DNA of 64,000 bases, taken from an uncultured Flavobacterium sp. Lineage in GTDB: Bacteria; Bacteroidota; Bacteroidia; Flavobacteriales; Flavobacteriaceae. Of the stretch, positions 49,507 to 58,735 are shown in pieces (positions within the stretch are counted from its first letter, which is position 1; each line of letters opens with the position of its first letter). The position numbers and the translations under genes were made by a program. The stretch covers positions 40,892 to 104,891 of the forward strand of contig CAYQSQ010000007.1 of assembly GCA_964420215.1 (NCBI GenBank). The letters run 5' to 3'. The notes under the pieces were generated by a model. It saw only the letters and a list, made by a program, of their open reading frames with translations. It was not told the origin of the DNA and did not search any database.

Positions 49507-50724
49507 CTAATTAGATATAATTAGTTTGTGATTTGTAACGGTATTATTTTCTAATTCTATTTTTAGAAAATAAACGCCTGTATCTTCAATTGAAAATTGA
49601 TTATTGGATAAAACGGATATTATTATTTCTTTTCCTAAAACATCAAAACCAGTTACTTTTTTAATTTTTACTTTAGTATTTATAGTAAAGACTCCATTTG
49701 ATGGATTTGGAAACAATTGTAAGTCTACATTATTAGTATTAAAATCTAATGTATTTAGTAGTTCGTTACCTCCAGCGCTTATTCCGATGTCAAAAATTTC
49801 AAGAAACGGAGATGAATCATTAGTTAACATAAAATTATTTAATCCATTACTATTCATTATTTTAATTTGATGCGTAGTATTGCCAACATAACCAGACACA
49901 ATTCTTCCATCAGGTAAGGTTACAGGTGAATTGTCATTAGTAAAACTATTATTTATTATGTGTGGATTTCCACCAGCAACATTTAATTTCCAAATTCTTT
50001 CGGCAGAAGTTTCTGCTTCAAAATAAATATTTCCATCAACATCATAACAGGGTGATTTCATTTGTGAACAACCTACAATTTCTGTTATTGAAGTTTTTTG
50101 AATTTGACCCGTACCATCGGACAAAACTTCTACTATTGCTGAGGATGAACTTACATTATTGGAACATTCGTAAATAATTTTTGTTTCATCATATGATAAA
50201 TAAGGTGAAATATTATAATCATAACCTGATAATGAACTTAATGGAATAGGATCAGACCAGAATAAACCCGTTTTTGTGATTTTAAAAATATCTCGAGTGT
50301 GTGTAGTTCCATTTTGTACAAAGTAGATGTTTCTTCCATCATTTGAAATTTGCATAATTCCTTCAGCATGAAATACATTTCCTTTCTCGTCTTTAGGAAC
50401 TTCGAAATAACTAAAGTTTGATTTACAAATAGTTATTGCAGCATATCCATCTATATTGTTACTACTATCAAAACGTTCACTCTGAAAAATATAATAATCT
50501 CCATTATGAGAAGTACAGATTGGTCCTTTATTTACACCACTATATGCAGCGCGTGTATTTATTGATGTAGATAAATTATAATATATAAAAGGGGTATTCA
50601 CATTTACTTTCCAAAAAATATCTTCTCCGCTAATTTTGTCTTGTGTTGTAAATACAACTTGTTGAGCAACAATCTTAAGAGAAATTGTTATAAATGCTGC
50701 TATAACTAAATTTTTTTTTTTCAT
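49507..50724 (-). CDS. Secreted TolB/PD40-like beta-propeller with T9SS type-A C-terminal sorting domain
   Basis: Signal peptide; repeats such as SPYLSYDETKIIY and SPCYDVDGNIYF; CTD LFPNPSNG...GVYFLKI...HKLII. ATG 50724 (50736 is an alternative). Confidence 0.78.
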   Translation of the reverse strand: MKKKNLVIAAFITISLKIVAQQVVFTTQDKISGEDIFWKVNVNTPFIYYNLSTSINTRAAYSGVNKGPICTSHNGDYYIFQSERFDSSNNIDGYAAITICKSNFSYFEVPKDEKGNVFHAEGIMQISNDGRNIYFVQNGTTHTRDIFKITKTGLFWSDPIPLSSLSGYDYNISPYLSYDETKIIYECSNNVSSSSAIVEVLSDGTGQIQKTSITEIVGCSQMKSPCYDVDGNIYFEAETSAERIWKLNVAGGNPHIINNSFTNDNSPVTLPDGRIVSGYVGNTTHQIKIMNSNGLNNFMLTNDSSPFLEIFDIGISAGGNELLNTLDFNTNNVDLQLFPNPSNGVFTINTKVKIKKVTGFDVLGKEIIISVLSNNQFSIEDTGVYFLKIELENNTVTNHKLIISN

Positions 50725-50779
50725 GATGAGTTTCATTTTTCAGTATTAATTCTAAATAATTTTTATATTTTTTTTGCTT

Positions 50780-50808: not shown

Positions 50809-52230
50809 TTAATCTTTTGTCTGAAACCCTTTACGCTTCATCTCACCCCAACTGGTTTTACCATCTATATAATGAGCGTTACCGATCATTGCAGCTCTGA
50901 TTATTAAAGGATGAAATATAAAAGGCTCAACTAATGCAGCTCCCATTAATTTGAAAATATCTGAGAATTTTTTGTATTGAGCATAGGTTTTTTCTTCTGC
51001 TAAAAGCGATAAAAAGCTAAACATGACTGAAAACGAATAAATCATACCAAACAAAAACAAGAAATACATCCAGTTTACACTCCCGAAGATTGCTAAAAAC
51101 AAAAGAATACATAATCCTATTATTTCTATAATTGGAGCTAAAAACTCAAATACCAACCAATAAGGATAACTTAATAATCCTAAAATTTTGTATTTGGGAT
51201 TAAAACACATTTTTTTGTGCGTCAAAAGAGTTTCGATTGTACCACGTGTCCAACGGTTACGTTGTCGAGTAAGAGTTTTGATATCTTCAGGTACTTCTGT
51301 CCAACATAGAGGGTCGGGGATAAATTTTACGGTATATTCGTGCTTATTATCAATCATATAACGTCGCATTCGTACTAACAATTCCATATCTTCACCAACG
51401 GTTTTTGTGCTGTATCCGCCACTTTTAATGACTATTTCTTTGTCAAACATTCCAAACGCACCTGAGATTAGTAGCAAGCCATCCATACGACTCCATGCCA
51501 TACGTCCTAACAAAAAAGCCCTCAAGTACTCGATGGTTTGTACTCGTGCTAAAAAGGAATTAGGGGCCTTTACTTTTTTGATTTTTCCATCAACTACTTT
51601 ACAAGAATTAGCGATTCGGATAACACCTCCCGTGGCGATAACACGTGTTTTTTCTTGTAAAAAAGGTTTAATCATTTTAACTAAAGAGTCTTTTTCTAAA
51701 ATACAATCGACGTCAATGGATGTGATATAACGATTTACGGATACATTAACTCCTGCGTTTAAAGCATCGGCTTTTCCTCCGTTTTCTTTGTCTATAACAA
51801 TTAAATTATGATACTCTTTTAACTTGGATTTATAAATTTGTTTGACCAACTGAGTAGGTATGGCACTATGAAACGAAAATTTAACAGGTTCAAGCTGAAA
51901 CTCGTCTATTGCATTTTGTAACGTTTCGTCTTTGCTTCCGTCGTTAATAATTACTACTTCAAAGTTTTTATATTCAATACTTAATAAAGATTTAATATTA
52001 TCGTTGATAGTTGGCGCTTCATTATAGGCAGGTGCTAAAATGGAAATAGATGGTGATATGTTAGAGGTTAACAATTTAGAATAATCTACACGCTGGTTGT
52101 TTTTGATATATTTTTTTGAAGTGCGGATAGATATATACGCTAAAATGATATATGATATCATAATAAACAAAGCATATATCAAGATGGCTCTTGAAAAAAA
52201 TAGGCTTAAATAATTAACAAAAGTATCCAT
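50809..52230 (-). CDS. Processive membrane GT2 synthase (PgaC/IcaA-like)
   Basis: PAYNE, NDGSKD, GGKADALN, IDVD, GED, QRNRW; one N-terminal and about three C-terminal TM helices. Confidence 0.9.
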   Translation of the reverse strand: MDTFVNYLSLFFSRAILIYALFIMISYIILAYISIRTSKKYIKNNQRVDYSKLLTSNISPSISILAPAYNEAPTINDNIKSLLSIEYKNFEVVIINDGSKDETLQNAIDEFQLEPVKFSFHSAIPTQLVKQIYKSKLKEYHNLIVIDKENGGKADALNAGVNVSVNRYITSIDVDCILEKDSLVKMIKPFLQEKTRVIATGGVIRIANSCKVVDGKIKKVKAPNSFLARVQTIEYLRAFLLGRMAWSRMDGLLLISGAFGMFDKEIVIKSGGYSTKTVGEDMELLVRMRRYMIDNKHEYTVKFIPDPLCWTEVPEDIKTLTRQRNRWTRGTIETLLTHKKMCFNPKYKILGLLSYPYWLVFEFLAPIIEIIGLCILLFLAIFGSVNWMYFLFLFGMIYSFSVMFSFLSLLAEEKTYAQYKKFSDIFKLMGAALVEPFIFHPLIIRAAMIGNAHYIDGKTSWGEMKRKGFQTKD

Positions 52231-52231
52231 T

Positions 52232-54508
52232 TTATTGTGCGGTATTAGTAGGTATGGAGCTGATAATATTATTTAATTCAATAATATTATAAACTAATAA
52301 TTTATTTAATTCGATATGCTCTGGATCCATTTTATGTATGGCAATTACGGCGACTTGTCGGAGCTCAAAATCTTCGGTTAAGGCACATTTTTTTAAAAAT
52401 TCAATCGAATTGGGTGGCGTGTTTTTACGAAACGATCGTAAGATTTGTTTACGTACAATAAAAGGTTCTGTATCATAAATTTCTATTAGTTTATCATACA
52501 TAGGAGCTTGTAATGCGGTTAGAGCTTTAATGATTTCAGCTTTTAAGCCTGCATTTTTTGAGTCTAAATAACTTAGTAAAAAATCAATTTCAGAAGTTTT
52601 GTTTTTTAAACGTACCAATCGAACTCCTAATATTTTATGAGATTGGTTGTTTTGAAACCATTTTTCTAAAGGAGGAATATCATAACTTTCTTGTAACTCT
52701 AATATGGACAAAATCTTTAATTGTTGCCAGTCACTAAGATAATTATTTGATCGTAAAACATATCCTAAACCTCTTATTGGACGTAATTGTAAAATTGCCG
52801 AAATTAGAGTTTCAATCGTATCTTCATCTGTTTCTTTTTCTAATATTTTATTAAACAAGATTACCGCCGATTTCACATTCATGGTTTGTATATCTTCTAC
52901 ACCGTCATAAAATGTTTTTTTAGTGAATGACTTAATTTTTTCTAATGAAATACGAACAAGCTTATTATCCATATAATACGATTTTAGCATTTCCTGTTCA
53001 GATAGAGCTAACTTTGGATATGTTTTAACAATACGCTCGATTAAAATATTTTTAAATTCATCTTTTGAAAACAATTGTTTTTCTATTCGAACCACATGGT
53101 TGTTAAAATCTTGTCGTTTGATAATGGCTTGTATTAATATGTCACTTTTACCTCTAATTACTCTTTTTCGGCGTGCAATAATTTTTTTGTATTGACGTGT
53201 ACCCAAGACATTAATCAAAAAAATAAGTGCTGTAAGTGTAAAAATTGTTGTTAACGTTAATATGATTAAACGTTTCTTTTTGCTTAACTGATAAGAGAAT
53301 GTTTCGGTTCGATTGGGTAAATATTTTAAACGTTCTTCTTGAGTTATTTTATTTGCTTGTACAGGAAATGAATTGTAATAATCCAATTGTATTTTAGAAA
53401 CCAATGGTTTATAAAAATTCCAGAAAAAATCGCGGCGGTCTTCAATTTCATTTTTATAAAAAAATGATTTAATTGCGCTGATACCTCCAAAATATGATGT
53501 GCCGTAACTAACTGGATTATCCGCAAAATCACCTGCAAAATAATAAAACGGACTAGGATGCTTTTGTTCGATAACCGCAGGAAATATTAAAGGGATATCG
53601 TGCTCACACATAATGGATTGCCCTCGTTTATTTGCTAAAACATTATAAGTTGCTTTGACTTCTTTAGAGTTATCATAGGAAACAACATCAAACCAAAAAG
53701 AGTATTCAATCATTTTAGGTAAATCGTAATATGCAGCCCATTCAGGATCGGTTTTTATAATAGGTGCTGAAAAATCCATATCGATACCATCTTCTAAAAC
53801 CACGATAGTTTCATCCATGTGGTTAAAAACCAATCCGCCATTTTTGAAAGGCCATTCGCCGTTGTGTTGTCTTTTGTAATTTTGAACCACCCACCTTGGT
53901 AGATCAAGGTTTTGTATCGTATCTAAACGATCAAAATATCTCCCAGTCCAACCCGTCCAGTGTACACCTGTTTCTTTTTCAAATTCACGTCGGATATTGG
54001 CAGGAGTAGGAGAGGCAAAAACATTATATTCGGTTATGACTAATTTTTTTTGTTCTTTAAATTTTTTAATCAATTTAAGCTCGTTCATTTTAAGACCACC
54101 GTAAAGTAATTTAGAGCGATCGGAGGGATTATTCTTTTTGTACCATTCGTTATAATACATCCCGTATGAGTCTGTATAATATAACAAATGATTGTTCGTA
54201 GCTATTTTGGTTAATGCGGAGTCACTATATTTTTTAAAATCTTTTGTATAAAATAGTTCATTTTCTTTTGGAAAAAAACCAAAATAATCTTTTGCGCGAT
54301 CATATGTGGTTGAGTCTGGTTTTACAAAACGTTCGTGGTTTAAAACCCAATAAAAGCTTTTGTGTTCCATACCGTCTTTTGTTAAAACTGTTTTGTCTAT
54401 AATAACAGCTTTTATTGGTTTTATTTCTTGAAAATACCAAAACAAAAAAGACACTCCAATTATCAACGAAAGGAGTAGAGCTACAATGATAAAAAATCGT
54501 TTTACCAT
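52232..54508 (-). CDS. Fusion protein: TM - about 350 aa extracytoplasmic domain - TM - HEAT-repeat domain
   Basis: TM at aa 5-24, aromatic-rich soluble domain (WTGWTGRYF, YYFAGDFAD, FFWNFYKP), second TM at about 53201-53270, helical HEAT-like C-terminus. Confidence 0.75.
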   Translation of the reverse strand: MVKRFFIIVALLLSLIIGVSFLFWYFQEIKPIKAVIIDKTVLTKDGMEHKSFYWVLNHERFVKPDSTTYDRAKDYFGFFPKENELFYTKDFKKYSDSALTKIATNNHLLYYTDSYGMYYNEWYKKNNPSDRSKLLYGGLKMNELKLIKKFKEQKKLVITEYNVFASPTPANIRREFEKETGVHWTGWTGRYFDRLDTIQNLDLPRWVVQNYKRQHNGEWPFKNGGLVFNHMDETIVVLEDGIDMDFSAPIIKTDPEWAAYYDLPKMIEYSFWFDVVSYDNSKEVKATYNVLANKRGQSIMCEHDIPLIFPAVIEQKHPSPFYYFAGDFADNPVSYGTSYFGGISAIKSFFYKNEIEDRRDFFWNFYKPLVSKIQLDYYNSFPVQANKITQEERLKYLPNRTETFSYQLSKKKRLIILTLTTIFTLTALIFLINVLGTRQYKKIIARRKRVIRGKSDILIQAIIKRQDFNNHVVRIEKQLFSKDEFKNILIERIVKTYPKLALSEQEMLKSYYMDNKLVRISLEKIKSFTKKTFYDGVEDIQTMNVKSAVILFNKILEKETDEDTIETLISAILQLRPIRGLGYVLRSNNYLSDWQQLKILSILELQESYDIPPLEKWFQNNQSHKILGVRLVRLKNKTSEIDFLLSYLDSKNAGLKAEIIKALTALQAPMYDKLIEIYDTEPFIVRKQILRSFRKNTPPNSIEFLKKCALTEDFELRQVAVIAIHKMDPEHIELNKLLVYNIIELNNIISSIPTNTAQ

Positions 54509-54511
54509 GGC

Positions 54512-56104
54512 TTAAAATCGTTTTATTATAGTTCCCATTATGCTAATTCGGTTTCTGAATCTCGCTGGAGCATATTCTTCATTTTCATACATTGCTGCTA
54601 CTTTAAACAAACGATACTCGTTAACTTTAATTTGTTGTTCTATTTTAAATCCTGCTGTTTTTACATTTAGGTTTTGATTACCTATAGCGTTAAATGGAAA
54701 TTTACCAGTATAAAAGCTAAAATCAGTGTAGTTATCTGTATTTTTATAATATCTTCTGACCTGAAATTGATGTGATAAGTAACCGGTGGTAGTGGCTGGT
54801 GGTGTAAAATAGTAACCACGATATAAAATCCAATATTTTTTATAGTATTTACCCAAATACACGGCGTAAATCATGTTATTTCCATTGGATAGTTTTAGAG
54901 TTCTGAATCCTAACGAAGCTTCAAAACCGTTGGGTAAAGTTCTATAAATATCTAATGTACTTCTCCAGTTAGGAAATAAAATACTGTTGTTTGAAAATCC
55001 TGCCCCAACGTGCATACTCATTTTATCATTAAGGCGTGGATAGGCTTCTGCTTCAAACTGTGTCGAAACTTCATCAAATCGCATCGCAGTACTCAATTGA
55101 AATCGCAACGGAAAAACTTTCGTTTTTCGTAAAAGTTCGACCCCACCAATATGCCATGGATCTAATTTTTCTTTAAAAAAACTGTTCATGTAAAAGATGC
55201 CAAAATGACTTTTAATATTTTTTTCCTTTAAGCGTCTTTGTATGGTTTGTGCTTCGGTATTATTGGGGTTTATTTTTAAAAGTTCATCCACAACCGCTAA
55301 GGCTTCATCGATTTGCTGATCGTTTTCTAAAGCTTTTGTTTTTTGAAGTAGTGTGTTTTCATCTTTGGGGTGATTTGCCAATTGTTTTTCGCAAAAAGTA
55401 ATACTCTTGGTATTATCTCCCGACCAGCGTAACACATCAATATAGGATGATAACACATCGTAATTTGTAGAATCTTTTGGAATCAAAATCTCAAACTTGG
55501 ATAACGAGGTAATGTATTCTTTATCAAATGCATTTAATTGCGCATCTAACAAGCCCATTTCAAGATTATCAGGGTGTTGTTGCACTAACTCATTCATTAT
55601 TGCTTTTGCTTCTGGTCTTTTTTGATTTTTTTCTAAAAGTTTGGCTTCTAAAAATCTAGAGGCAACAGCATTTACTTTTAAAGCCTCGTTAACTTCAATT
55701 GCTTTTTTCCTTTTTTGAAGAATTTCTTCTTTATTGGGGTAATACTTTAAAATTGTGTCGCAATAAGCGATACTTTTTTGAGTATCCTTGTTCCAACGCA
55801 ACACATCAACATAAATATTTAAGATATCATAATTATGTGGATTTTTGTTATTAAGCGCTTCTAATTCCGTTAATGATTGAGCGTATTCGCCATCAAAAGC
55901 AGTCAGTTGTGCCTTGTATAGTTTAAAGTCTAAATAGGAGGGGTGTTGCTGTGCTAAAACGGTTAATTTTTGTTTCGCTTCCGCTCGTTTACCACTCAAT
56001 TCCAGCTGTTTAGCTTGGTTTAAATACACCGCTAACGAATCCGATTGAGAAAATAAGGGGGCTATTCCTAATAGGAATAAAAGTACAATTAATTTAAATT
56101 TCAT
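54512..56104 (-). CDS. TPR-containing YaiO-family outer-membrane beta-barrel
   Basis: Signal peptide, duplicated TPR block, barrel motifs QFEAEAYP, FPNWR, FEASLGFR, GKYYKKYW, terminal Phe. Confidence 0.85.
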   Translation of the reverse strand: MKFKLIVLLFLLGIAPLFSQSDSLAVYLNQAKQLELSGKRAEAKQKLTVLAQQHPSYLDFKLYKAQLTAFDGEYAQSLTELEALNNKNPHNYDILNIYVDVLRWNKDTQKSIAYCDTILKYYPNKEEILQKRKKAIEVNEALKVNAVASRFLEAKLLEKNQKRPEAKAIMNELVQQHPDNLEMGLLDAQLNAFDKEYITSLSKFEILIPKDSTNYDVLSSYIDVLRWSGDNTKSITFCEKQLANHPKDENTLLQKTKALENDQQIDEALAVVDELLKINPNNTEAQTIQRRLKEKNIKSHFGIFYMNSFFKEKLDPWHIGGVELLRKTKVFPLRFQLSTAMRFDEVSTQFEAEAYPRLNDKMSMHVGAGFSNNSILFPNWRSTLDIYRTLPNGFEASLGFRTLKLSNGNNMIYAVYLGKYYKKYWILYRGYYFTPPATTTGYLSHQFQVRRYYKNTDNYTDFSFYTGKFPFNAIGNQNLNVKTAGFKIEQQIKVNEYRLFKVAAMYENEEYAPARFRNRISIMGTIIKRF

Positions 56105-56111
56105 TTAAATA

Positions 56112-58637
56112 TTATTGATTGATAATGATTTTTTTGGTTCGTTTTTCTTGACCTGATTCGACCACAAAAAAGTAGGTGCCTTTAGGTAATTCTGTTACTG
56201 AAATAACTGCTTTGTTACTATTAATTTCTATTTCTTTTACTTTAAGTCCAGCGGCAGTATAGACTTCTACACGATCCATAACACCTTTAGATTCTATCGT
56301 TACATCTGAGTTATCTATAACTGGATTAGGATAGGTTTTGATTAATCCTTCGCCTTTGGGTTTACCTGTTACTTTCAACTCAACTGTTACTGGTTTAGAC
56401 CAATATAAATCGGTATTGATACTATATTGAAAGGTGTCAACACCTATAAAACCGTCGGTTGGTGTGTAGTTAAAACTTCCGTCTGCATTTAAAACTAAAA
56501 TACCGTTTTTAGGTGTTGTTGCTAATACCGCCTCAAAATTAGCTCCACTTAATGATAAATCATTTACTAATAATCCTTTATCTTTTGTGATAGGTTGTAA
56601 ATTTTCTATATCAATAACGTATTTATCTACCATAGCAATAGGATCACATGGTATGTTAATCATTTGAGATTTAACAACTTCAAAAACTTCTTTTTTGTAC
56701 TCAATAGTTGCGGGTATTTCCCATTTATCCCAATTGAATCTATTTTTAGTTTCTACCTGAAAATCATTATATACAATACCCACGCTAATTCCGTCTGTTA
56801 ATACCGTTTCGGTTATGTCTTTGGTATCTCTATCATCATGCATTACGGTTCCTTTACTTGGGTCAATCACGTTGATTAATGTCCAAGGTAAACGAATCTC
56901 GATTGACGTATCTTTTAAAATTACTGCATCTGTTGTTTTTAAAGGTAAATTCAAACGGTTGATTCCCAAGGATCCAATGTATTGAATTTCTTTTTCAGGG
57001 TCATTGTTTTTCCAACGTACAATATTCCAAGGTGCTCCATCAGTGACCGTAGATCTAAATTTTTGAACCGCTGCTGCTGTATGATGCCAAATTCCGTACA
57101 AATCATATGCCTCCGTCACATATAATTCAGCTTTGTTATTGGTTATTTTAACTACAAATTCAGCTCGAGTGGTTACTTTTTTACCGTTCGGAAGTGTTGA
57201 TTCTCCTAAATCTTTATCATAGGTATCTAAACTTACCCAAAGTGTTTCACCGTCTTTTAAGTGTTTTTGCGTATTTAATTTTAATTTAAAATAAGCGAAA
57301 TCACCTAATGCTTCAATACTTTTTACAGGACAATCGGTACAAAATGTTTCGACATTTTCGAATTTGTTATTATCTTTTTTATATCCTATAATTCCAAAAT
57401 TTTGTTCAGGAGACGTTACGTTATGCCATAAGATACGACGATCTACATTAAAATCCATTGGATCGGTAATCCATGTTCTTTTAAACCACTCGTCTAACCA
57501 AGCGAACATCATACCGCCGCCACAACCCGTGGTGTGTATATTTTCTAACAATCGAATATTTAATTCACCCTGTTTGGTTTCGTCATAACCACCATGATAC
57601 ATTCCATTAGTGGTGTAATGCGCTACACCCCAACTGGAAGGAACTCCATATTCTGCAATGATTAAAGGGAAGTTTTTATAGTGTGATTTTAAATCGGTCA
57701 AATATCCTACATAACTGTTTTGACCTAAATAATCCGAAGCAGATTGATACTTAGATTCACTACCTATAAAATCCGGATAATACGGGTAGGCATGGTAACT
57801 TATAAAAAAACCAGCTTTAGCTTTTTCTTTATTTACTTCCGAAAAATCTAATACGGCTGAATCTTCAAAAGGATTTTTTTCTTCAGGGTGGGTTATTGGA
57901 TCTAAAGTTGGCCAGCTAGAAATACTAACTGGTCGTTGAGTTTTGTATTTTGTTTGTTCGAGTGTAACTAATTTATCTAAACGTTCTAATAACCAAGCCT
58001 CAGAAGCGTTTGTGTTGTTGATAGATAGATAATTACCGTTAAACGATTTTACATTTGGATGATCTTCATTTGTTTTTAAAACCTCAGGAGGATGAATTTC
58101 TCGACCTACTATATAACCAATAACCCACGGTGAAATATCCGAGGTGTAGGTTCCATAAGCCTTACCACGTCTTTCTTCAATTACAGCATTACCATGAACG
58201 GCATTTACATTATCTATAATTTCTTTATCCATTATAGATTGTATACTAAATAAATCTTCATGATAATCCGGGATTTCTTCTTCTAACCAAACTCCATGAA
58301 ATACATAAATAGGATGATTGGGATTAGCTTCATTATATGCTTTTAATTCGTCATAAAACTGAGGAAAATGCAATGTGTAAACACGTATCGTATTAAATCC
58401 AGCTTCTCGCATTAGCGGAAACCATCTTTTATAATCTTCGTGGCGTGCAGCTAATTCGCCAGGATAAGTACCTGGTTTAGAAACCCCTAAGTTTATACCT
58501 TTAATAAATAATGGCACATAAGCTTCACCATTCCAAACCGTTATGTTTTTATCGTCGGTAGAAAAGGGGAGAGGGGTAATTTCTTGACCAAAAATCAAGT
58601 TGGTAAATAGCAGGGCGTAGAGTATTTTTTTAGACAT
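56112..58637 (-). CDS. Clan GH-A-like TIM-barrel glycoside hydrolase + Ig-like (tandem-95/Big_9-like) domain + T9SS type-A CTD
   Basis: GFNTIRVYT, VGREIHP, SYHAYPYYPDF, IAEYG, FAWLDEWFKRTW; NADGSFNYTP Ig repeat; YPNP...PKGTYF...KKIII CTD. ATG at 58637. Confidence 0.82.
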   Translation of the reverse strand: MSKKILYALLFTNLIFGQEITPLPFSTDDKNITVWNGEAYVPLFIKGINLGVSKPGTYPGELAARHEDYKRWFPLMREAGFNTIRVYTLHFPQFYDELKAYNEANPNHPIYVFHGVWLEEEIPDYHEDLFSIQSIMDKEIIDNVNAVHGNAVIEERRGKAYGTYTSDISPWVIGYIVGREIHPPEVLKTNEDHPNVKSFNGNYLSINNTNASEAWLLERLDKLVTLEQTKYKTQRPVSISSWPTLDPITHPEEKNPFEDSAVLDFSEVNKEKAKAGFFISYHAYPYYPDFIGSESKYQSASDYLGQNSYVGYLTDLKSHYKNFPLIIAEYGVPSSWGVAHYTTNGMYHGGYDETKQGELNIRLLENIHTTGCGGGMMFAWLDEWFKRTWITDPMDFNVDRRILWHNVTSPEQNFGIIGYKKDNNKFENVETFCTDCPVKSIEALGDFAYFKLKLNTQKHLKDGETLWVSLDTYDKDLGESTLPNGKKVTTRAEFVVKITNNKAELYVTEAYDLYGIWHHTAAAVQKFRSTVTDGAPWNIVRWKNNDPEKEIQYIGSLGINRLNLPLKTTDAVILKDTSIEIRLPWTLINVIDPSKGTVMHDDRDTKDITETVLTDGISVGIVYNDFQVETKNRFNWDKWEIPATIEYKKEVFEVVKSQMINIPCDPIAMVDKYVIDIENLQPITKDKGLLVNDLSLSGANFEAVLATTPKNGILVLNADGSFNYTPTDGFIGVDTFQYSINTDLYWSKPVTVELKVTGKPKGEGLIKTYPNPVIDNSDVTIESKGVMDRVEVYTAAGLKVKEIEINSNKAVISVTELPKGTYFFVVESGQEKRTKKIIINQ

Positions 58638-58735
58638 ATTTTGATATTTCTGAGTAATTAACGACAATTTTGAATACAATTTAAATATAAAAATTAACAT
58701 TTTATTAACACGTAATTTTAATATTAAATTTTACA

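Follow-up and report, generated by a model that had tools for sequence, protein, structure and literature searches.

A rare gene fusion joins an uncatalogued, predicted periplasmic domain to the HEAT-like partner of a putative polysaccharide synthase in an uncultured Flavobacterium

In a stretch of 64,000 nucleotides (nt) from an uncultured Flavobacterium sp. (GenBank assembly GCA_964420215.1, contig CAYQSQ010000007.1, positions 40,892 to 104,891; here called the window), we identified a gene (52232..54508; all window coordinates given here are on the minus strand) whose product of 758 amino acids (aa) combines two membrane-anchored proteins that are encoded separately in relatives: an uncatalogued extracytoplasmic domain, which we refer to as N-dom, and a HEAT-like alpha-solenoid encoded next to a processive family 2 glycosyltransferase (GT2). 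The gene is a genuine fusion of two neighbors, and such fusions are rare. We consider it probable that one event produced the fusion and that the protein serves the synthase as a bitopic accessory subunit whose N-dom faces the periplasm and whose HEAT solenoid faces the cytoplasm.

The open reading frame (ORF) is free of stops, and hydropathy analysis gave exactly two transmembrane (TM) segments, at about aa 5 to 25 and 413 to 435. TM1 (aa 5 to 25; 54434..54496) has a hydropathy peak of 2.97, is preceded by MVKR, lies in a helix spanning residues 2 to 25 in the AlphaFold2 model, and is present in every stand-alone N-dom protein of our family alignment (A1, 98 sequences); together, hydropathy, model, and conservation suggest that it is a signal anchor for N-dom with its N terminus in the cytoplasm. 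N-dom itself (aa 27 to 385; 53354..54430) was delimited by alignment A1, the AlphaFold2 model, and Foldseek, and Phe, Trp, and Tyr make up 17.9% of its residues versus 8.0% of those in the C half. An earlier reading of the window by sequence inspection (the original prediction) had placed the end of the aromatic domain at FFWNFYKPLVSKIQLDYY near position 53375, and the final codon of this segment (aa 361 to 378) ends exactly there. A linker of 34 aa (aa 379 to 412) leads to TM2 (aa 413 to 435; 53204..53272), which, judging from hydropathy, a long model helix, and alignment to the TM segment of stand-alone HEAT proteins, would be the segment that originally anchored the HEAT protein by its N terminus. 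The 19 residues after TM2 form a basic patch (aa 437 to 455; 53144..53200) that holds 9 Lys or Arg residues by count, includes KKIIARRKR at aa 441 to 449, and presumably marks the cytoplasmic side. The uninterrupted 758-aa frame with a TM segment, an aromatic-rich domain, a second TM segment, and the KKIIARRKR patch, as first described, was thus confirmed by ORF, hydropathy, and composition.

On the basis of its full-length homology, its position upstream of a GT2 gene, and its solenoid fold, the C half appears to be the standard HEAT-type partner of this PgaC-like GT2 subfamily. From the tail preceding the TM segment to the C terminus, TM segment included, it aligns with stand-alone TM-plus-HEAT proteins (phmmer E values of 1e-12 to 1e-24 with those beside a GT2), and in relatives' genomes the region from about aa 400 to 730 is matched by separate open frames of 270 to 400 aa. 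All 14 of the 14 unfused Bacteroidota loci encode a HEAT-like protein with one N-terminal TM segment directly upstream of an orthologous GT2 (40 to 58% identical to that of the window), usually with a tetratricopeptide-repeat (TPR)-YaiO barrel close by. The solenoid (aa 456 to 755; 52244..53143), predicted from Pfam, phmmer, AlphaFold2, and Foldseek to be a HEAT/armadillo (ARM)-like cytoplasmic partner domain of the GT2, was modeled from 23 sequences with a predicted local distance difference test (pLDDT) score of 89.4 as a long TM helix followed by some 17 short helices in an all-helical arrangement, for which Foldseek returned designed ARM proteins, alphaRep, importin-alpha, beta-catenin, CAND1, and the PP2A A subunit (E values of 3e-4 to 1e-2). 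The sole Pfam match in the protein, HEAT_2 (PF13646) at aa 641 to 724, scored 24.5 bits versus a cut-off of 27.7, and homologs of the C half pass that cut-off with 32.7 to 54 bits; an NCBIfam scan of the 758-aa protein gave no match. The HEAT assignment would therefore seem to hold at the level of fold and to be borderline by sequence. A word-indexed search with the C half alone as the query gave no match, and a profile built from its genome-derived homologs retrieved mostly Christiangramia/Gramella proteins; in NCBI, stand-alone HEAT partners are named "hypothetical" or "HEAT repeat domain-containing." Their lengths range from 272 to 931 aa among loci (variants at L024:5548-7629, L025:4560-7355, and L033:3395-4969; loci and proteins read for comparison are numbered with the prefixes L and P), the proteins of two genera being extended at the C terminus by more HEAT repeats and those of another by about 150 aa at the N terminus.

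The N half is a member of a large family. A phmmer search against 1.84 billion cluster representatives yielded 934 matches, 286 of them below 1e-30, and nearly all were stand-alone proteins of 380 to 400 aa covering only aa 5 to 380 or so, that is, the TM segment and the domain. The family thus comprises at least 934 clusters at 50% identity, and its members are called "hypothetical protein" in NCBI records. N-dom had no NCBIfam match, 98 members scanned singly at an E value of 1 gave no consistent Pfam match, and a profile search of PDB sequences found no relative. The AlphaFold2 model (pLDDT 94.8) and Foldseek indicate an alpha/beta part resembling class I glutamine amidotransferases (GATase1) joined to a beta-rich part. 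The best structural neighbors are weak (E value of 3e-4, TM-scores of 0.33 and 0.54) and all GATase1-like (lin1909 3fij, STM3548 2gk3, 3rht, and the GH42 middle domain 5xb7); the beta-rich portion, about half of N-dom, is without a structural match. In alignment A1, G77, E160, and G225 are invariant, and K39, D113, D327, and many Trp, Tyr, and Phe residues are conserved; in the model, three parallel strands (residues 34 to 38, 108 to 112, and 156 to 160) have D38/K39, D113, and E160 at their C-terminal ends. This pattern of conservation would fit a binding cleft or an active site alike. The candidate assignment of N-dom as a class I glutamine amidotransferase was rejected: the Cys-His-Glu triad is absent, and the fold match is weak. 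Unlike such proteins, N-dom has no catalytic Cys (its single Cys is not conserved across the 98 sequences), carries the extra beta-rich part, and shares no sequence similarity with them.

The original prediction proposed that the two halves occur as separate genes in similar loci, and this proved to be so, given the 934 matches to stand-alone N-dom and the stand-alone TM-plus-HEAT genes upstream of GT2 genes. Fused clusters number only two among the 1.84 billion representatives searched with phmmer, namely, the fused gene itself and P0001, an independent metagenomic ortholog of 753 aa that is 54% identical over 99% of the length and is full length and syntenic. That P0001 has the same architecture within the same operon argues against an assembly or frameshift artifact. 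Between aa 376 and 430, the frame contains no in-frame ATG, GTG, or TTG, and the C half with its TM segment therefore cannot be made on its own. According to alignment A2, the unfused L031 genes, and this start-codon scan, the junction (aa 386 to 412; 53273..53353) consists of a new linker at about aa 386 to 396 and, at about aa 397 to 412, the counterpart of the short, predicted periplasmic N-terminal tail of stand-alone TM-plus-HEAT proteins.

In a maximum-likelihood tree of N-dom (IQ-TREE quick search), the window's sequence and P0001 form a clade (SH-aLRT 99) that is sister to L027 (SH-aLRT 100), and the Bacillota forms fall in a separate clade. Homologs are not always fused: in L027, genes for an Hpt protein, a receiver, and an N-dom with its own stop are followed by a 63-aa ORF and then a separate TM-plus-HEAT gene (hidden Markov model E value of 1e-20), and in L031 (genome G598), whose N-dom and GT2 are 50% and 58% identical to those of the window, the order is receiver, a 373-aa gene, N-dom, HEAT, and GT2, with only 5 nt between the N-dom stop and the HEAT start. 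Of the complete unfused operons, that of L031 is the closest, and its 373-aa gene (L031:6122-7243) separates the receiver gene from N-dom. From ...LDYY to TM2 there are 34 residues, a length that matches the N-dom tail and the periplasmic HEAT tail combined; given these matching lengths and the unfused neighbors 5 nt apart, the loss of one stop codon would suffice to explain the fusion. We hypothesize that a single evolutionary event joined two adjacent, co-oriented genes, N-dom and then TM-plus-HEAT, for which no rearrangement would be required, as N-dom would end in the periplasm, where the tail of the HEAT protein starts.

The functional link of the fused protein to the GT2, also part of the original prediction, is strongly supported by gene neighborhood, co-occurrence, and fusions of GT2 to N-dom and of HEAT to GT2 and N-dom. 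Among 401 genomes drawn evenly from the phylum, N-dom was present in 19 (11 genera) and an ortholog of the GT2 (E ≤ 1e-90) in 78; the window's GT2 is 37 to 58% identical over its full length to these and to those of the 14 unfused loci, and orthologs in this range adjoin HEAT genes or are fused to HEAT. The GT2 ortholog occurred in all 19 of the 19 genomes with N-dom versus 59 of the 382 without it, and of the 19 other N-dom genes, 13 are no more than 2.2 kb away from the GT2. The arrangements vary: N-dom, HEAT, and GT2 follow one another in L031 and L032 and, by spacing, in three further genomes (the full order in L032 being receiver, N-dom, HEAT, GT2, TPR, and YaiO); L033 has receiver, HEAT, GT2, YaiO, and N-dom; in Gramella, a YaiO and N-dom pair diverges from receiver, HEAT, and GT2; and in family f16, genes encoding N-dom fused to SPOR converge on HEAT and GT2. 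N-dom and HEAT are separate in L016 to L033 and adjacent in L026, L027, L031, L032, and L033.

The same modules are also fused in other combinations. Proteins of 549 to 798 aa combining N-dom and SPOR are common in Bacteroidota, and their genes adjoin HEAT-GT2 in family f16. In Bacillota (Brassicibacter, Halalkalibacter, Gorillibacterium, Andreesenia, and Brevibacillus), proteins of about 1,070 aa join N-dom to a 670-aa hydrolase-like (TIM-barrel) region, and in the Bacillota locus L004, such a protein is encoded just downstream of a 1,011-aa TM, HEAT-like, and GT2 protein whose GT2 portion shares 37% identity with the GT2 of the window. P0138 of Heliophilum fasciatum (WP_131919220; 1,377 aa) contains HEAT, GT2, and N-dom in one chain, P0099 is a GT2-N-dom fusion, and P0080 (840 aa, from a metagenome) has tandem N-doms at aa 101 to 439 and 486 to 832, with no hydrophobic segment detected. 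HEAT, GT2, N-dom, and the hydrolase-like domain therefore recur together, fused in at least four different ways. By virtue of these recurrent alternative fusions, the gene qualifies as a Rosetta-stone fusion in the sense of Marcotte, its parts being separate elsewhere and functionally linked there.

Within the window, the fused gene is the third of a five-gene minus-strand operon with successive gaps of 7, 3, 1, and 72 nt. The first gene (56112..58700) encodes an 862-aa, TIM-barrel-like protein whose Por_Secre_tail and Big_9/cadherin-like matches predict export by the type IX secretion system (T9SS). The second (54512..56104), ending 3 nt before the fused gene, encodes a 530-aa TPR protein with a YaiO-type outer-membrane beta-barrel (Pfam YaiO, 2.6e-40; TPR; TIGR04390). 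The gene that starts 1 nt after the fused gene (50809..52230) encodes the 473-aa processive GT2 synthase, recognized by Pfam GT2 families and a QRNRW motif, for which the best NCBIfam match, TIGR03937 (PgaC_IcaA), scored 150 bits versus a cut-off of 422. A 409-aa protein with a Por_Secre_tail (49507..50736), encoded 72 nt downstream of the GT2, is possibly the last member of the operon; no other domain was matched in it, and the related loci read contain no counterpart; among these, the contig of L003 stops about 100 nt past its GT2 gene and is hence silent on such a counterpart. Overall, the gene layout looks like that of a synthase-dependent exopolysaccharide system. Scans for sigma-70 promoters and terminators gave results at chance level and are unsuited to Bacteroidota. 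The Bacillota fusions also extend the family relationships of the first gene: aa 49 to 677 of the 862-aa protein match the C-terminal 670 aa of these N-dom fusions (P0006) at 33% identity (BLASTP E value of 1e-98), and this region gave no Pfam, NCBIfam, or PDB sequence match. It represents a further uncatalogued family linked to this system.

The predicted topology, with the N half in the periplasm and the HEAT half in the cytoplasm, is coherent with the positive-inside rule, the SPOR and T9SS connections, and the TM count of HEAT-GT2 proteins. A basic N terminus precedes TM1, and 9 Lys or Arg residues follow TM2 versus 5 before it. A location outside the cytoplasm fits the partners to which N-dom is fused elsewhere: SPOR, which binds peptidoglycan in the periplasm, and a domain that this organism secretes through the T9SS. 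By TM count, the HEAT region of P0009 and P0138 would share the side of the cytoplasmic GT-A domain, and N-dom would follow an additional TM segment located after the cytoplasmic C terminus of the GT2.

We infer the following arrangement, in which the contacts, the action on a glycan, and the glycan itself are putative. On the cytoplasmic side, the HEAT solenoid would dock on the GT2 and, in relatives, would probably also bind a phosphorylated CheY-like receiver. N-dom, being tethered, would sit at the periplasmic exit of the synthase, where it might bind, guide, or process the nascent chain, which would then move on toward the TPR-YaiO pore and the hydrolase-like protein exported by the T9SS.

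Several observations weigh against an accessory subunit acting at the synthase, or at least against a close dependence of the two. Among the 78 sampled genomes with the GT2 ortholog, 59 lack N-dom, some of them of the same genus, and our first search found it in none of the 36 genomes of the same genus, several of which keep matches to the HEAT half. The co-occurrence test (Fisher's exact test, 2e-14 with the window's own genome excluded) carries no correction for phylogeny, and the N-dom genomes represent 11 genera. N-dom-SPOR proteins occur without a GT2 ortholog in three genomes of one genus, and the N-dom genes of L001, L015, and L028 lie far from any GT2. The HEAT region that is fused to GT2 in Bacillota showed generic repeat similarity only to the HEAT half of the window by BLASTP, hmmsearch (at most 6.4 bits), and hhalign (probability of 28%), and its equivalence is thus positional and architectural, with homology not proven; the physical contact between HEAT and GT2 that those fusions suggest is accordingly putative. 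The predicted topology draws on hydropathy, charge, and fusion logic. Since 59 of the 78 GT2-positive genomes are without it, N-dom is an optional accessory of the module and not an obligatory co-polymerase (the original prediction had suggested a co-polymerase or signaling subunit); of 11 tested same-genus genomes without N-dom, 4 have the GT2 ortholog.

The window's operon also differs from its relatives in the regulator. A stand-alone CheY-like receiver of 117 to 132 aa, belonging to one subfamily, is encoded beside HEAT or beside the N-dom and HEAT pair in 14 of 14 unfused Bacteroidota loci, frequently with a hybrid kinase or Hpt protein nearby. No ortholog of this receiver was matched in the 64-kb window at an E value of 1e-5, and none was found in the source genome (2.38 Mb), where the best matches (28 to 36% identity) are receiver domains in frames of 217 to 519 aa; all seven receiver-domain (REC) matches at E ≤ 1e-8 lie in open frames of that size. 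This lineage therefore appears to have lost the receiver. Separately, we noted three-gene operons of N-dom, Hpt, and receiver at L029:7001-8950 and on a JGI contig (3300075153; P0020), in which the receiver is of the HEAT-linked subfamily and no GT2 or HEAT gene lies within 7 kb.

Within the same genomic context, N-dom could instead be a periplasmic hydrolase, lyase, or modifying enzyme, with K39, D113, E160, and D327 forming a site at the C-terminal edge of the sheet, and we regard this as a possible, if less probable, explanation. It would account for the polar residues that are conserved where strands 34 to 38, 108 to 112, and 156 to 160 end, for a GATase1-like fold class whose members are mostly enzymes, for the Bacillota fusions of N-dom to a hydrolase-like TIM-barrel domain, and for the optional occurrence of N-dom in the module, which it shares with modifying enzymes such as the sulfatase-family proteins of sister loci. 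However, the Cys-His-Glu triad is missing and the lone Cys is variable, no enzyme family was recognized by sequence, the structural matches are weak, and the many conserved aromatic residues would suit a binding surface equally well. A bolder reading makes N-dom a novel kind of periplasmic co-subunit of processive GT2 synthases, whose glycan-handling or catalytic site, likewise new, would be formed on a GATase1-like scaffold around the invariant Glu; in this receiver-less lineage, the fusion would be a one-chain transmembrane coupler that directly informs the cytoplasmic side of the synthase about the state of the periplasmic polymer path, replacing the His-Asp phosphorelay of relatives. We consider this rather unlikely.

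It seems still less likely that the fused protein is primarily a transmembrane switch, in which N-dom would sense an envelope cue or the polymer and, through TM2 and HEAT, gate the GT2 in place of a lost phosphorelay. The window and its genome do lack the receiver whose gene lies ahead of HEAT or N-dom in every one of the 14 unfused loci, and N-dom elsewhere shares operons with Hpt and the same receiver subfamily. Yet most loci encode both the receiver and a separate N-dom protein whose cytoplasmic tail has just 4 to 5 residues, and sensing for HEAT would therefore not be its ancestral role; moreover, a single TM segment without a known dimerization or HAMP-like element is a poor transducer, and the loss of the receiver may just mirror the small genome. 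That N-dom is a general envelope protein related to peptidoglycan, with an incidental HEAT fusion, is very improbable: SPOR fusions are common and some stand-alone N-dom genes lie among housekeeping and cell-wall genes (YkuD, LysM-M23, truB, and rplS), but all 19 N-dom genomes have the GT2, 13 of 19 genes are close to it, and at least four independent fusion types connect N-dom with the GT2, the HEAT partner, or the hydrolase-like protein of the operon. An artifact of assembly or sequencing, conceivable in a 43-contig draft when unfused neighbors are 5 nt apart in a relative, can be dismissed almost entirely, as the same fusion with a similar linker recurs in an independent sample at 54% identity, the second half has no start codon, and the two fused genes form a supported clade. 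The preferred reading thus remains a one-event fusion that produced a bitopic accessory subunit of the synthase.

Cellulose, poly-N-acetylglucosamine (PNAG), alginate, and Pel are made by synthase-dependent systems that serve as the model for the coupling of polymerization, gating, and export in bacteria. By analogy, the fused protein would work like BcsB, Alg44, and PgaD, and yet it is a member of none of these families. The window's operon resembles PgaABCD and IcaADBC, which make poly-beta-1,6-GlcNAc, in being synthase dependent, with a membrane GT2 bearing the QxxRW motif, a TPR-plus-barrel exporter, and an inner-membrane partner of the synthase. Unlike in those systems, the GT2 falls well short of the PgaC/IcaA family threshold (150 versus 422 bits), the barrel is of the YaiO type rather than PgaA, no homolog of PgaB or PgaD and no cyclic di-GMP (c-di-GMP) element is present, and the partner consists of a HEAT solenoid and a new periplasmic domain. 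PgaD is a small protein with two TM segments and no periplasmic domain that binds c-di-GMP together with PgaC, whereas the fused protein has 758 aa with two large soluble domains and no NCBIfam PgaD match.

BcsA and BcsB pair a processive GT2 with a membrane-anchored periplasmic partner at its exit, the two being fused as AcsAB in Komagataeibacter; BcsB is built of pairs of a carbohydrate-binding and a flavodoxin-like domain. N-dom would likewise be a periplasmic partner at the GT2 exit that can be fused to the synthase (P0138 and P0099), but it has no BcsB Pfam match, no BcsB chain appeared among the best 50 Foldseek matches listed, its anchor is N terminal and not C terminal, and it is optional where BcsB is required. 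The analogy to BcsB and PgaD drawn in the original prediction thus found no backing at the level of sequence or fold in Pfam, NCBIfam, Foldseek, or PDB profile searches. Alg44 of the alginate system is a bitopic protein with an N-terminal cytoplasmic PilZ domain, a TM segment, and a periplasmic domain beside the GT2 synthase; the fused protein similarly would join a cytoplasmic docking or regulatory domain, a TM segment, and a periplasmic domain in a single bitopic chain, but its domain order is reversed and its domains are of unrelated families, with no PilZ or HlyD match and no c-di-GMP.

A further likeness is to the receiver-HEAT-GT2-YaiO operons, which encode orthologs of the C half, of the GT2, and of the TPR-YaiO barrel, although in the window the receiver is missing, the HEAT protein carries N-dom, and a T9SS-exported hydrolase-like protein belongs to the operon. 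The operon of the fused gene has three of the four defining features of that module, the receiver being the one that is absent. A literature search found no description of the module or of N-dom.

The fusion and the alternative combinations assign the large, uncatalogued N-dom family to an unstudied polysaccharide synthase system, and they suggest a four-part unit of HEAT solenoid, GT2, N-dom, and hydrolase-like domain that is common to Bacteroidota and Bacillota. The fusion would also fix the topology of the HEAT partner and offers a natural construct for structural work, with one chain spanning both membrane faces. Further, the receiver-less variant is a place to ask how synthases are switched on in phyla with little use of c-di-GMP.

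Some features of the related loci deserve mention. Genes with a sulfatase or alkaline-phosphatase-family domain occur in three sister loci (L018:8752-12186, L024:1733-4114, and L026:4669-6696); the domain is fused once to the GT2 (1,144 aa) and once to TPR repeats, and presumably it is of the kind found in BcsG, LtaS, and OpgB. This suggests that a phospho-substituent may be added to the polymer in these lineages; the window's operon has no gene of this family. In Bacillota, identification of the relatives as Bacillus subtilis YdaJKLMN or Listeria Pss was set aside. In those systems, YdaL/PssB is deacetylase-like and YdaN/PssD is BcsB-like, and both families have Pfam models; the Bacillota relatives, set apart from these systems by description only, had no match to those models. 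Finally, GGDEF and receiver-GGDEF genes lie upstream of the HEAT-GT2 and N-dom-hydrolase-like pair in L004, and a Tn7-like set (TnsA-like, Mu-transposase-like, TniB, and TniQ) lies immediately downstream of it (L004:11736-17577).

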